DNA from: an uncultured Gemmatimonadales bacterium
GTDB taxonomy: Bacteria; Gemmatimonadota; Gemmatimonadetes; Gemmatimonadales; GWC2-71-9
Direction: 5' to 3'
Assembly (NCBI GenBank): GCA_963795085.1
Contig: CAWCFX010000003.1
Span: forward strand, 64,001-128,000
DNA length: 64,000 bases
Shown here: one piece after another, positions 36,001-39,000 of the stretch
How positions within the stretch are numbered: the first letter of the stretch is position 1
How the letters are laid out: every line of letters begins with the position of its first letter
Position numbers: made by a program

Positions 36001-39000
36001 TGGGCCAGGTGCTCGCGGTCCAGCGCGAAGATCAGGTCCAGGGCCGGGATTTTTTTCTCGATCAGGCTCCACTCGTCCACCCGGCGGGCGCCTTCCAGGA
36101 GGAGCGACTCCGGGTTGATCTGGACCAGGAAGTCTTCCCGCTCAGGGCGGACCCCCGCCTCGAAGTTGAAAGTCCCCGAGTTCCAGGTGAAAAGGAAGTA
36201 CACCGCTTCCTCGATCTGGAGGCGCATGTATTCCTCCAGCTCTTCACGCGAGATCGCATTGATCTCGACCAGGATCTGACCCAGTTTGGTGTCCCGCTTC
36301 TCGGTCTGCATGTCCACCGCCTGTTGCAGCTGGGCGGCCGAGATGCGGTTGTTCTTCACCAGGATGTCGCCCAGCCGGTCCCGGCGGTTGACGATCGAGG
36401 CGTAGCAGATCTTGCCCAGGTCGAAGTAGATATAGCCGAAGTTGTGGCGGTCGGCGACAGCGAGCAGGCCGGTCTTGCGGCCCAGCGCCAGCAGCTGCAG
36501 CACGTCGGGCAGACTGGCTTCCTTGAGACTCCCCTTGATGGCCATCAGCGCAGGTCCTCCACGATCCGGTCGGCGGAGTCGGGCCAGTCCCAGATCATCT
36601 TCTCGGAACTGCGAACCGTCCCGGAGGGCAAGGCGACCACGCCGCTCACCCGGTTCCCCCCGCTCCGCCTGGGGGGCTTGGGGGCGGACCTTCGAGGAGC
36701 TCGCGGGCGAGCGCGGCGGTGGGCGGCTCCTGGCGGGTTTCGGCGGCGCTCACCACCCGCTGCAGGATCCCCTGCAGCGTCCGCACGGAGTCCACCGACC
36801 GTCCCGCCAGGTATTCTGCCAGCTCCTGATTACCGCCGCCGGTGCCTTGCCGCACCAGACGCTCCAGCACCGCGACCCGCACTTCCCGCTCCGGGGGCGG
36901 CAGGTGCACCACCAACCCCCCCTCAAGGCGGCTGATCAGGCGGGGTTCCACTCCCGTCAGTTCACCCAGCGGCATCGGGCTGGTGAAGACCATCTGCCGG
37001 CCTTCCTTCAACAGGTGGTTGAAGAGCCAGAAGAACTCTTCCTGCGTCCGCTCCTTACTGTGCAGCAACTGGATATCGTCGAGCAGAAACGCGGTCACCC
37101 GGCGATACCGGGATCGCCACCAGGCCACCCGGTCGCGGTCGATGGCCGCGATGAGGTCGTCGACCAGCTCCTGGGTGTTGAGACAGGCCACCAGCGCCCC
37201 ATCGTGCCGGGCCAGCCCGTTGCCGATGGCGTGGAGGAGGTGGGTCTTGCCGGTCCCGCTGGGGCCGACCACCACCAGCGGGTTGTATTTGAGCGCCGGA
37301 TGCTCCACCGCCATGAGCGCCGCGCGTACCGCGATCCGGTTTCCGGGTCCCTCGGCGAAATCGGAGAGTTGCCAGAAAGGCGAGGGCCCCGGCGGCGGGG
37401 TCGCCCCTTCCCGGGCCCGGGCCAGCAGTGCGGCGGCATCATCGACCCGGTCGGGATCGCGGAACACCGCCTCGCCGCCGAGGCTGGCGTCGATGTCCAC
37501 GGCATCGGCCTCGATCGCGCGAAGCCGCTCGACATCCTCCGCAAACTGGCGCAGGGTGGCGTCGGGGTCGGCGGGGGAGTCCTGTTCCAGAAGCGCGCTC
37601 AGCCGGCTGACCCGGTACCCTTCGCCTTCCCACCGCATCACCGCCTCGGCCACCCGGGTGCGCCAGGCCTCCACCTGCTGGGCGACGGTGTGGGAAATCT
37701 CGGACAGGAAGCTGCCGAACTCGTCGGCCTCGGGGGGCGGCGGGGTGACGCCCAGGGGCACCCCGCCGAGCACCACCCGGGCCTGGGCCGGGTCGAGCGG
37801 CTGATCACTCACCGCCTGGAACGCGATCAACCGGTTGAGCGCGCCGATCAGCTCGCGCACGTTGGTGATCGCCAGCGATGCGACCGCTTCCAGCACACCG
37901 GCGGCGAATTCCGCCCGCCGCTCCTCGGCGTGGCGCCGCACGATGGCCACCCGGGTCTCGTAGTCGGGGGCGGCGATGTCGATCACCAGGCCGCCGGCGA
38001 ACCGCTGGATCAACCGCTCGTCCAGTGACTCGATGTCCGCCGGGCTCCGATCGCTGGTCAGGACGATCTGCCGGCTCGCGGTCTGCATCGCGTTGATGAC
38101 CCGGAGCAATTCGGCCTGCATCTCGCGCCGCCGGTCAAGGAACTGGACATCGTCGACCAGCAGCAGGTCCACCTCGGTGAATCGGCGGCGGTAGGCCTCG
38201 CCCTGGCCGGCGGCGACGGCGGCGTGGAAGGACTCCATGAAATCGTCGAGGGTGAGGTACTCGACGGCGAGGGCGGGATTGATCAGCCGCGCGGCATGAG
38301 CTACGGCCATGAGCAGGTGGGTCTTGCCCAGTCCGGGGCCGCTGTAGATGAACAGCGGGTTGTAGGCCACGCCGGGGCTCTCGGCCACCGACTTGGCGGC
38401 CGAGACCGCCAGCCGGTTGGCGGAGCCCACCACGAACGTATCGAAGCGGAACCGGGGATTCAGGTCCGCGGTCACTTCAAGGCGCCCCCGGCGGCCAGTT
38501 TCTTGAGCACGGCCTCGCTGATGCCTTTCAAGGTTTCGAACACCCCGCCCCCGTGGAGCGCATCAGCGCTGAAACTCCGCACCATCCGGAAGTTGAGCGC
38601 ATCGTCCAGCTCGGCCTGGGTGAGAATGAGATCCCGCGGCAGGTCCTGCTTGTTGTACTGGAGGACGACCGGGAATGTCCGGACGTCGATACCCTGCTGC
38701 AGGAGATTACCGTGGAGGTTCTGCAGGCTCTCCAGGTTCTCTTCGAAGCGGCGGGCCTGGCTGTCGGCGACGAACACCACGCCGTCGGCGCCCTGCAGGA
38801 CCAGCTGCCGGGTCGCATTGTAGTAGACCTGCCCCGGCACCGTGTAGATCTGGAACCGGGTCTTGAACCCCGAGATCACGCCCAGGTCGATGGGCAGGAA
38901 ATCGAAGAACAGGGTGCGGTCCGTCTGGGTCGCGAGCGATACCATGCGGCCGCGCCGCGATTCCGGCACCCGGCCATACACGTACTGCAGGTTGGTCGTC

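Follow-up and report, generated by a model that had tools for sequence, protein, structure and literature searches.

A double-AAA+ paralog of DnaA in an MglA/PATAN/Che gene cluster of Gemmatimonadota, a candidate ATP-switch adaptor

AAA+ modules of the DnaA type are known from textbooks as switches that handle DNA. To our knowledge, AAA+ proteins of the initiator clade have so far come only from DNA replication and transposition, as in DnaA, Hda, DnaC/DnaI, IstB and Orc/Cdc6. Hda consists of one module, ~230-250 aa long, and carries a clamp-binding motif (QL[SD]LP-like) at its N-terminus. Two AAA+ modules per polypeptide occur in type II proteins such as p97/VCP and Rix7, which belong to the classic hexameric-ring AAA+ clade. 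ParA-type ATPases are encoded in some che clusters, and TPR domains bind C-terminal peptides, as Hop does with the EEVD of Hsp70/Hsp90 and PEX5 with PTS1. According to two sources (bioRxiv 10.1101/2021.06.11.447907; PMC4316618), MglA/MglB genes neighbour PATAN genes, and a PATAN domain binds PilB1/PilC in Synechocystis.

The window analyzed here is a stretch of 64,000 nucleotides from an uncultured Gemmatimonadales bacterium (positions 64,001 to 128,000 of contig CAWCFX010000003.1, assembly GCA_963795085.1). Like the PATAN regulators of the PixE, PixG and PatA type and like MglA/MglB modules, its locus brings together PATAN, an MglA-family GTPase, an MglB-like Roadblock protein and Che proteins; PATAN is fused to TPRs here and to a receiver domain in those regulators. 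This association is already in the literature. A DnaA-type ATPase within it appears to be newly seen: our literature search, which covered few subscription journals, returned no DnaA-like protein in MglA/PATAN/che clusters or in the motility of Gemmatimonadota.

Domain architecture and relation to DnaA

The 609-aa protein matched Pfam Bac_DnaA in two stretches (E 4.2e-94, 313.6 bits), and phmmer placed the envelopes of two DnaA modules at residues 5-238 and 366-597 (Table 1). In alignments with E. coli DnaA and the genome's own DnaA, both halves aligned solely to domain III and nothing aligned to domain IV; Pfam gave no Bac_DnaA_C or domain-I family at E <= 0.01. The N-terminus begins directly at the AAA+ module, without domain I, and in the alignment and the AlphaFold model a disordered tail stands in place of domain IV. 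The best structural match of this model was domain III of B. subtilis DnaA (8bv3), with a target-normalized TM of 0.96 and an rmsd of 1.3 A over 233 columns. Only 3 Bac_DnaA matches were found in the genome, namely the two modules and a dnaA on contig C4 that is directly followed by dnaN. These results support the identification of the gene as a paralog of dnaA that encodes a pair of AAA+ modules but neither domain I nor domain IV; they agree with the survey's finding, which had also placed the true dnaA beside dnaN on C4.

Each module resembles DnaA domain III in fold and motifs, with both the initiator-specific helix pair and the lid present, and identity to DnaA proteins is 38-45%. The protein differs from DnaA in carrying two modules in one chain, in lacking domain I, the linker domain II and the DnaA-box-binding domain IV, and in having gained a helical domain and a tail with predicted TPR docking. 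An ssDNA-contact residue of DnaA is gone from module 1 and the catalytic acid from module 2, and the gene's location is a che/MglA cluster instead of dnaA-dnaN. In a tree, DnaA, module 1 and module 2 each fell on one side of a branch (97/89, 100/98, 100/100), and the modules were not nested within the sampled Gemmatimonadota DnaA clade (98/87); with three clades and E. coli as the sole further outgroup, the sister pair and the date of the duplication lie beyond the reach of this tree.

The DnaA model TIGR00362 scored 474.9 bits against a cut-off of 343.9, which is exceeded because the two module stretches add up, and databases therefore name these proteins 'DnaA'. The Hda model TIGR03420 reached 159.8 against 194.8, and the other Hda models stayed far under their cut-offs. 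The helicase-loader branch of IstB/DnaC was rejected, since NCBIfam IS21_help_AAA scored 106.7 against 200 and DnaC 40 against 357; Pfam IstB_IS21 (82 bits) spans just the shared ATPase core, and Bac_DnaA scores far higher. Foldseek also returned p97/VCP and Rix7, which share with this protein the two AAA+ modules per polypeptide. The likeness is one of generic AAA+ fold only (TM 0.27-0.30 on the query, rmsd 18-21 A), whereas the modules here are of the initiator clade, with the helix-pair insertion, and are separated by a domain of ~110 aa.

This central helical domain is conserved in all 16 aligned relatives, single-module forms included, and was modelled by AF2 as five helices with a pLDDT of 91.3. 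It matches no known family, which does not make its fold a novel one. Pfam gave sub-threshold hits only (ABC_tran_CTD, E 0.047; DUF6879, E 0.15), the ESM Atlas gave no usable match, and Foldseek against the PDB gave none at E <= 0.001. The best match of a wide VIA search, EzrA (Z 6.3, rmsd 3.7, 112 aligned), is in the noise range of helical bundles.

Table 1. Position of the DnaA-like gene, its parts and the surrounding genes in the window
Feature	Position	Strand	Details
DnaA-like ORF	36646..38475	-	609 aa, GTG start
Module 1, complete DnaA domain-III AAA+ (ATPase core, initiator-specific helix pair, lid)	37762..38463	-	Residues 5-238; Pfam Bac_DnaA 5-166
Central helical domain with RWEGEGYR and FRDPDR motifs	37378..37740	-	Residues 246-366, ~110 aa, between the modules
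Module 2, second DnaA domain-III	36688..37377	-	Residues 367-596; phmmer envelope 366-597
Frame break	36686..36687	-	Two bases against one codon in relatives (three-frame translation, alignment)
C-terminal tail	36548..36685	-	46 aa, ...RSSEKMIWDWPDSADRIVEDLR; intact, but shifted by one base against the called frame
PATAN(DUF4388)-TPR protein 1	34923..36545	-	540 aa; Pfam DUF4388 5.8e-37 and TPRs; TPR domain at ~250-540
MglA-family small GTPase	38472..39074	-	200 aa; 248.4 bits, E 3.6e-73 to M. xanthus MglA 5ymx
MglB-like Roadblock/LC7 protein	39108..39569	-	153 aa; MglB chains 6h5b/6izw E 1.6e-07; Pfam Robl_LC7 weak
Second Roadblock/LC7-domain protein	39569..40570 (longest ORF)	-	Pfam Robl_LC7 2.2e-08, residues 226-312
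PATAN(DUF4388)-TPR protein 2	40784..42172 (longest ORF)	-	DUF4388 1.6e-31; synteny; relatives match from residue 82
Large TPR protein	41931..44627	-	898 aa; Pfam TPR families; kept in 15/16 loci
Upstream che half	44635..48583	-	Pfam
CheC	44635-45288	-	Pfam, upstream che half
CheA	45323-47218	-	Pfam, upstream che half
CheY	47223-47585	-	Pfam, upstream che half
CheW-domain protein	47645-48583	-	Pfam, upstream che half
Downstream cluster half	27753..35004	-	Pfam, synteny
CheR	34105-35004	-	Pfam, downstream half
CheD	33617-34108	-	Pfam, downstream half
CheB	32566-33738	-	Pfam, downstream half
CheW-domain protein	31647-32753	-	Pfam, downstream half
TPR protein	30775-31650	-	Pfam, downstream half
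MA-family peptidase	29876-30688	-	Pfam, downstream half
TPR protein	27753-29684	-	Pfam, downstream half

Residues of the two modules were compared in E. coli numbering among 16 module-1, 14 module-2 and 21 DnaA sequences, after one mistranslated row had been dropped. In the window, module 1 retains K178, D235, D236, D269, R281, R285 and R334 and has D at the position of E204. In module 2, Q replaces E204 and P replaces D269, so that the catalytic acid and the sensor-I Asp are gone; Walker A and B, the arginine finger and sensor II are retained, and the Walker motifs previously noted in each module are thus present. An acid (E or D) stands at the E204 position, which we take to have a role in ATP hydrolysis in E. 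coli DnaA, in 16/16 module 1, 0/14 module 2 and 21/21 DnaA sequences; a literature search found no paper containing 'E204Q'. The arginine finger R285 is kept in 14 of 16 module 1 and 13 of 14 module 2 sequences, the Walker-less module 2 of genome G116 included. Judged by these residues, the two modules are not equivalent, module 1 having a complete ATPase site and module 2 lacking the catalytic acid.

Longer branches show module 2 to be, by this comparison, the faster-evolving of the two; the window and one relative (L017) are 56% identical in module 2 and 79% in module 1. In a wider set (n=53), the Walker A Lys is present in 53/53 module 1 and 47/53 module 2 sequences. Three relatives (L010, L009, L048) have single-module forms, three others (L004, L006, L007) a module 2 without lid and one (L008) a module 2 without Walker motifs, and all of these retain the helical domain and the tail. 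The module 1 core, the helical domain and the tail were present in all 19 copies examined in relatives.

The residues of module 2 bear on the idea of a positioning ATPase that is tethered to nucleic acid, binds ssDNA or RNA through DnaA-type contacts and, in the manner of ParA, places or partitions the chemosensory or polarity complex by ATP-dependent binding. The genome has a single che cluster, in which this gene is embedded, and both modules keep the initiator-specific helix pair. In DnaA, V211 and R245 bind ssDNA (PMC5716108). V or I occupies the V211 position in 21/21 DnaA and 12/14 module 2 sequences, and the equivalents of K243 and R245, taken with V211 as the ssDNA-binding set, occur in 7/14 and 9/14 of the latter. 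This idea is nevertheless improbable. The V211-type residue is gone from module 1 in 16/16 sequences, the duplex-DNA-binding domain IV is absent, and module 2, the would-be DNA binder, is dispensable in several lineages; the likeness to ParA, moreover, is one of analogy.

Gene cluster, frame break and distribution

The setting of the gene beside a small GTPase and Roadblock genes was confirmed and can be named more closely. The GTPase belongs to the true MglA family (Table 1), and its TVPGQ motif is visible in the alignment with 5ymx. The 153-aa Roadblock protein is MglB-like by its match to MglB chains; NCBIfam MglB scored 34.8 bits on it, under the cut-off of 200. A second MglA/Roadblock pair is located elsewhere in the genome. 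The DnaA-like gene overlaps both neighbours by start and stop codons, on one side with its GTG start and the stop of the GTPase (GTGA). On the other side, where stop and start also overlap, the gene is presumably coupled in translation to PATAN-TPR1. The order GTPase, DnaA-like gene, PATAN-TPR1 is kept in 18 of 19 loci of relatives. The cheR-cheD-cheB-cheW genes had been said to lie always beside it; the full cheR-cheD-cheB set follows in only 10 of 16 loci. A defence-system reading was rejected, PADLOC giving only weak P-loop matches and no qualifying stretch.

Relatives at 80-87% identity are 643-645 aa long, against 609 aa for the ORF in the window, and end in an aligned, conserved C-terminal tail, [S/D]xEKxxWxWP...R[LV][IV]EE. 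Past the frame break, the called ORF adds 13 unrelated residues before its stop at 36646, and in the other frame the intact tail runs to a stop codon (36545-36547) that overlaps the ATG of PATAN-TPR1 (TGATG). The 609-aa gene of the survey's finding is thus present as an ORF, but its call is cut short. The break is most likely an assembly indel, because it occurs amid C runs in a 6-contig assembly, a setting typical of consensus indels. In a search of public sequencing runs over the break, the share of sampled words did not exceed 0.15 in any run and no RNA run was listed, and none of the contigs of X1, X5 and X12 spans 36631-36693.

If the break were real, the product in this organism would lack the docking tail, and a decaying copy, non-functional or altered in function, would be the result. 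The break is present in the assembled sequence, the DnaA-like gene and PATAN-TPR1 are both split in genome G127, and the gene has been lost in ten sampled genomes of the order. Decay is still unlikely: besides the C runs of the assembly, the 46 codons past the break are open and retain the whole conserved motif, and the overlap between the stop and the ATG of PATAN-TPR1 is preserved.

Nearly all genomes of one order have the gene; in the rest of the class it occurs sporadically or was not found. It was detected in 70/71 genomes of family f1, 22/31 of f2 and 1/16 of f7; in the small families f3 (2/2), f4 (1/1), f5 (1/1) and f8 (2/2); and in 0/6 of f6, 0/1 of f9 and 0/19 of f10-f12, which belong to other classes. 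Among the carriers in f2 are single-contig genomes, for example G067, G103 and G136. The earlier statement that it occurs throughout class Gemmatimonadetes is too wide; the presence of only the ordinary dnaA in three other families of the phylum fits the count for f10-f12. In total, 150 genomes were sampled across the phylum and 50 of them did not yield the gene; of these 50, 49 show a match at the level of DnaA and one (G130) no match with this query.

The C-terminal tail and its predicted partner

Of 193 relatives with a length of 560 aa or more, 165 carry the tail motif. Prediction of a complex between tail and PATAN-TPR1 gave a median ipSAE of 0.81 (runs 0.79, 0.81 and 0.86), and the best of 3 controls gave 0.00. 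This mark was reached by 116 of 157 solved complexes and 2 of 215 mismatched pairs, counts that are only rough because own alignments were used for the docking; the score may also gain from likeness, since TPR-peptide complexes are common among solved structures. The runs had at least 54% of contacts in common, with a partner pLDDT of at least 55. The predicted contacts join the conserved tail motif to groove residues conserved among orthologs (N323 0.98, K461 0.96, N462 0.98, D465 1.0); in the model, the tail runs along the concave face of the TPR domain. As in Hop and PEX5, a disordered C-terminal tail would occupy a groove lined by conserved Asn and Lys; the predicted ligand, EKxxWxWP...RLIEE of ~25 residues, is unrelated to EEVD or PTS1.

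The constant partner of the DnaA-like gene is the downstream PATAN-TPR1 rather than the GTPase. PATAN-TPR1 follows directly in 19 of 19 loci of relatives. Genome G116 keeps the DnaA-like gene without GTPase or che genes nearby, and G036, G047 and G114 keep the GTPase without the DnaA-like gene. Wherever the gene is present (100 of 100 genomes), PATAN-TPR1 extends to residue 531 or beyond (of 540). Six genomes have PATAN-TPR1 but not the gene, and in all six the protein is C-terminally shortened, ending at 463-494; in the other 45 genomes PATAN-TPR1 was not found at E <= 1e-40. These six genomes come from three genera, so the co-loss events that are independent are few. The confident docking contacts end at 494, and the part missing without the gene (~495-540) lies outside them. 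Three orthologs from genomes without the gene were examined; in two, conservation of the contact residues does not fall below that of the remaining TPR residues (ratios 1.14 and 1.24), and only L023 has a lower ratio (0.47).

NCBIfam NF053729, an MshEN-type model, scored 44.2 bits on PATAN-TPR1 against a cut-off of 38. MshEN-type c-di-GMP receptors are marked by two tandem 24-residue motifs, RLGxx(L/V/I)(L/V/I)xxG(L/V/I)(L/V/I)xxxxLxxxLxxQ (PMC5013675). Residues 56-108 of PATAN-TPR1 fit most of these positions, with N replacing a motif G and a spacer of 6 instead of 5 residues. This possible MshEN-like tandem motif is located in an insertion of the PATAN domain.

The company of the gene also bears on whether the protein regulates replication as Hda does, by pairing with DnaA-ATP through its arginine finger and box VII surfaces and promoting or blocking hydrolysis or oligomerization, which would couple replication initiation to polarity or motility. 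Like Hda, it is a DnaA-derived AAA+ protein that lacks domains I and IV and keeps the arginine finger. Its modules are 40% and 38% identical to E. coli DnaA and 41% to B. subtilis domain III; R281, R285 and R334 are retained; NCBIfam Hda models match both halves, under their cut-offs; and the three Bac_DnaA matches leave the genome without a separate Hda-like gene. The differences make such action on DnaA less likely, and we give it a low probability. The protein has two modules and stays under the TIGR03420 cut-off, and its AAA+ module starts at the N-terminus, where no QL[SD]LP-like motif was seen in 10 aligned relatives. Its genomic context is also another one: the gene is never beside dnaA-dnaN, and the che/MglA cluster or its remnant surrounds it in 19/19 loci of relatives. 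It is not found in a third of the phylum's sampled genomes, and its presence and absence are shared with the TPR protein, to which its tail is predicted to dock.

A possible role in signalling and its meaning

On balance, the gene probably encodes an exapted DnaA paralog that serves the MglA/MglB/PATAN/Che cluster as an ATP-switch AAA+ adaptor and is no replication protein, its function being read from the features described above. From the gene context, we infer an action in polarity or motility. The sole CheA of the genome lies in this cluster, and the same genome also has flagellins and MCPs; the output therefore need not be pili or polarity.

In the proposed mechanism, ATP binding would let the arginine finger of module 2 complete the site of module 1, within one chain or between chains in the style of a DnaA filament. 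This step can only be proposed, because the AlphaFold model (pTM 0.54) leaves the relative position of the modules unfixed. With the site completed in this way, a scaffold bearing PATAN-TPR molecules on its tails would take its conformation or oligomeric state from the nucleotide state. Inputs would come from the MglA-like GTPase, the MglB-like protein that partners it and the Che pathway, and the PATAN domain would be the output, acting on pili, flagella or another polar function; cyanobacterial PATAN binds PilB/PilC, the motor of type IV pili. The more specific form of this proposal, in which an initiator-clade AAA+ protein has become a nucleotide-gated scaffold whose ATP-dependent self-association, under MglA/Che control, clusters PATAN-TPR on WxWP tails, is tentative, with a chance a little short of even. 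In a bolder version, DnaA-type surfaces might also touch DnaA and tie replication to polarity.

Module 2 keeps ssDNA-contact residues of DnaA for which a pure protein scaffold would have no need, and this counts against the adaptor reading.

Annotation of these genes is a trap, in that pipelines call the products replication initiator; because both modules together exceed the DnaA equivalog cut-off, dnaA counts are inflated in Gemmatimonadota genomes. The predicted pair of tail and TPR groove offers research on bacterial polarity a concrete object, and may be a missing part of PATAN-based control. The family retains the ATP switch, has shed DNA recognition, has gained a putative protein-docking tail and resides in an MglA/PATAN/Che cluster. 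If the adaptor reading is true, it would be the first DnaA-type AAA+ module at work in signalling or polarity.

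Two DnaA domain III modules and a probably truncated gene call

The DnaA-like protein contains two Pfam Bac_DnaA matches (E 4.2e-94), and the phmmer envelopes against domain III of the genome's own DnaA cover its residues 5-238 and 366-597. When the protein was aligned with E. coli DnaA and with its own DnaA, domain III was the sole region matched by either half; no domain IV or domain I family of DnaA was found in it by Pfam at E <= 0.01. An AlphaFold model, for which a full-length relative (P0003, 87% identical) served as first row of a 53-row alignment, had a mean pLDDT of 89.9 and a pTM of 0.54. 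Its best structural match was domain III of B. subtilis DnaA (8bv3; target-normalised TM 0.96, 233 columns at an rmsd of 1.3 Å). The survey's finding of two domain III modules without domains I and IV is thereby confirmed, as is the location of the true dnaA at the dnaN locus: the three Bac_DnaA matches in the genome are the two modules and a 464-aa dnaA on contig C4, with dnaN downstream. Relatives are named DnaA or DnaA/Hda family in databases because two modules sum to 474.9 bits, above the DnaA equivalog cut-off of 343.9.

The listed relatives at 80-87% identity (n=25) are 643-645 aa long and carry a conserved C-terminal tail (consensus ...SREKxVWDWPDxxDRLIEDLR) that is missing from the called protein. 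Of 193 relatives with a length of 560 aa or more, 165 have the tail motif within their last 45 residues. An intact tail is encoded in the window, one base out of frame with the called ORF. The break follows the codon for the G of LLEG, where two bases stand against one codon in relatives, among runs of C. Since all 46 out-of-frame codons after the break are open and the tail motif is whole, the break is read as very probably an assembly indel, and the gene call appears to be cut short. Among public sequencing runs, none was found to span the break. Decay of the window's copy would come into consideration only if the frame break were real. The tail stop codon overlaps the ATG of the next gene, PATAN-TPR1 (TGATG), and the upstream GTPase gene ends in a stop codon that shares bases with the GTG of the DnaA-like gene (GTGA). 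In the single-contig genome G127, the DnaA-like gene and PATAN-TPR1 are both in pieces, as if decayed jointly.

Coordinates of the features, counted in the window unless a contig or locus is named
Feature	Position	Strand	Remark
DnaA-like ORF	36646-38475	minus	609 aa, GTG start
Intact tail	36548-36685	minus	
Codon before frame break	ends 36688		
Tail stop codon	36545-36547		
PATAN-TPR1	34923-36545	minus	540 aa
MglA-family GTPase	38472-39074	minus	
PATAN-TPR2	40784-42172	minus	
DivIVA-family gene	54208-54723	minus	
Second MglA paralog with Roadblock-domain gene	G000:C3 about 297,160-298,660 (L026 7162-8664)		source genome, outside the window
DnaA-like gene and PATAN-TPR1 in pieces	G127:C1 about 303,560-306,820		

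Distribution and gene neighbourhood

Among 150 sampled genomes of the phylum, with the gene counted as present where a match went beyond DnaA level, nearly all members of one order carry it, and the rest of the class has it sporadically. By family, it was found in 70/71 (f1), 22/31 (f2), 2/2 (f3), 1/1 (f4), 1/1 (f5) and 2/2 (f8) genomes, the f1 and f8 counts each including one unpublished genome (G057, G097), and in none of the 19 genomes of other classes (f10-f12). The remaining families gave 1/16 (f7), 0/6 (f6) and 0/1 (f9). Overall, this falls short of the presence throughout the class that was first surveyed. Searching with the central domain, one genome per species, returned 290 loci, and 79 of the best 80 of these bore the label Gemmatimonadota or that of one of its subgroups. 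The other carries the label Solirubrobacterales; its contig, of 4070 bases, and one labelled Gemmatimonadales have identical match coordinates (loci L122 and L125), and the two are probably one contig in two bins rather than a case outside the phylum. Thus, the family is confined to Gemmatimonadota as far as seen.

The gene belongs to a long minus-strand cluster in the order CheW-domain protein, CheY, CheA, CheC, large TPR protein, PATAN-TPR2, two Roadblock proteins, MglA-family GTPase, DnaA-like gene, PATAN-TPR1, CheR, CheD, CheB, CheW-domain protein, TPR protein, MA-family peptidase and TPR protein. Compared with M. xanthus MglA, the GTPase reaches 248 bits, and the adjoining Roadblock protein matches MglB (E 1.6e-07). 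The fixed gene order described in the survey holds next to the gene, with the GTPase directly upstream in 18/19 relatives' loci that have the gene and PATAN-TPR1 directly downstream in 19/19, but the full cheR-cheD-cheB set follows in only 10 of one set of 16 loci. In the one locus without the GTPase upstream, L008 of genome G116, the cluster is reduced to the DnaA-like gene, PATAN-TPR1 and the peptidase, and this remnant lies beside the rluD-like and ileS genes also found next to the cluster in the window. The only CheA found in the source genome (93% complete) is that of this cluster. As the genome also has 3 MCP, 2 flagellin and 8 T2SSE-family ATPase matches over cut-off, several outputs may depend on one Che pathway.

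Several observations concern the surrounding genes. Elsewhere on the contig, beside recR, there is another MglA paralog (52% identity with the cluster GTPase) that has its own Roadblock-domain gene, and both paralogs are present in most genomes of the order. A third type of MglA-like match (58% identity), with one in-frame TGA each, occurs in G049:C96, G106:C4, G116:C2 and G027:C34. Two loci of genus g11 (L024, L025) lack cheR/D/B and have a strongly diverged cluster GTPase, with 35-38% identity where other members of the family show 70-85%; nothing unusual is seen there in the DnaA-like gene and PATAN-TPR1. Upstream of the cluster, past ileS, lspA, dksA-like and pseudouridine synthase genes, the DivIVA-family gene lies at a distance of about 6 kb.

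Unequal modules and a predicted partner

Judged by aligned residues, the two modules of the DnaA-like protein are not equivalent. E204 is required for hydrolysis in DnaA. V211 and R245 of DnaA bind single-stranded DNA (PMC5716108).

Residue counts in E. coli numbering (one mistranslated row dropped)
Residue	Module 1	Module 2	DnaA
Walker A K178	16/16	13/14	21/21
Acid at E204	16/16 (E or D)	0/14	21/21
Sensor-I D269	14/16	5/14	21/21
Arginine finger R285	14/16	13/14	21/21
ssDNA contact V211 (V or I)	0/16	12/14	21/21

In the variants, module 2 is the more expendable part. Its lid is missing in L004, L006 and L007; in L008 it lacks Walker A/B and keeps RLRSRFEGGL; and it is absent in L009, L010 and L048, which encode single-module proteins of about 390-400 aa. 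The tail and the central helical domain are retained in all of these. The latter, of about 110 residues between the modules, has conserved RWEGEGYR and FRDPDR motifs and a model pLDDT of 91.3; no meaningful relative was found in Pfam, Atlas, Foldseek or VIA searches. Positioning of the protein by a tether to DNA would explain the ssDNA residues retained in module 2, but several lineages do without this module. In a maximum-likelihood tree, a single branch sets off each of DnaA, module 1 and module 2 from the rest (97/89, 100/98, 100/100), and branches are longer in module 2; the tree neither dates nor polarises the duplication. In protein P0199 (673 aa), a Bac_DnaA_C DNA-binding domain comes after two DnaA-III modules, which makes it a tandem-module protein with domain IV kept.

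Among five loci read from genomes without a detected DnaA-like gene, the gene is cleanly missing in G036, G047 and G114, where the cluster and GTPase remain; G052 lacks both GTPase and DnaA-like gene, and G072 the whole GTPase block. Across the 150-genome sample and the window's own genome, PATAN-TPR1 extends to at least residue 531 (of 540) in 100/100 genomes with the DnaA-like gene and ends at 463-494 in 6/6 genomes, of three genera, that keep it without that gene; in the other 45 it was not found at E <= 1e-40. Because the lost gene is upstream of PATAN-TPR1 and the lost repeats are at its far end, these are separate events.

Complex prediction with PATAN-TPR1 (54-row alignment) and the window's tail (19-row alignment) gave a median ipSAE of 0.81 (runs 0.79-0.86), the best of three controls reaching 0.00. 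The ipSAE mark was reached by 116/157 solved complexes and 2/215 mismatched pairs, counts that hold only roughly here because own alignments were used; in addition, part of the score may come from likeness to solved structures, among which complexes of TPRs with peptides abound. The runs had at least 54% of contacts in common and a partner pLDDT of at least 55. In the predicted pose, tail residues 21-46 run along a groove of PATAN-TPR1 residues 285-494, whose contacts are conserved among orthologs (N323 0.98, K461 0.96, N462 0.98, D465 1.0, G491 1.0). In the three partner-less orthologs examined, several of them are altered or deleted, with W393 changed to H in 3/3 and D465 and 490-494 lost. 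Against docking, the stretch 495-540 that is missing without the gene is not among the confident contacts, and conservation of contacts relative to other TPR positions is reduced in only 1/3 partner-less orthologs (ratios 1.14, 1.24, 0.47).

A possible role outside replication

AAA+ proteins of the initiator clade act as nucleotide switches and assemble with one another head-to-tail through an arginine finger. The architecture here combines a complete site in module 1 with a hydrolysis-poor, finger-keeping module 2, a spacer and docking tail having been gained and DNA recognition removed. Hda-like control of DnaA is weakened as a rival role by an Hda score below threshold, the lack of a clamp motif, the genomic context, and loss of the gene in many genomes that keep dnaA. 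The DnaA-like protein would instead be an ATP-gated adaptor or scaffold holding PATAN-TPR1. We infer that its ATP state would set the oligomer, and that the complex would act on an organelle; the output would be the PATAN domain, which in cyanobacteria is shown to bind the pilus motor PilB1/PilC (bioRxiv 10.1101/2021.06.11.447907).

An MshEN-like c-di-GMP motif inside the PATAN domain (NF053729, cut-off 38) scores 44.2 bits in PATAN-TPR1 and 35.1 in PATAN-TPR2, and might make this domain a c-di-GMP sensor; the fit of PATAN-TPR1 to the tandem motif of PMC5013675 is imperfect, with N for G and a spacer of 6 residues. In the giant metagenome proteins P0202 (1876 aa) and P0207 (1990 aa), an MshEN domain at the N-terminus adjoins a DnaA-III module, a second DnaA-III lies near the C-terminus, and the WxWP tail is absent; these fusions possibly link this type of ATPase to c-di-GMP sensing.

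Within the literature searched, nothing was found on DnaA-type proteins in MglA, PATAN or che clusters, and Wuichet and Sogaard-Andersen (PMC4316618) remark only on MglA near PATAN genes. We place the protein among the DnaA/Hda-family AAA+ proteins, from which it is set apart by its architecture and its predicted partner, both new, and by a genomic context outside replication.
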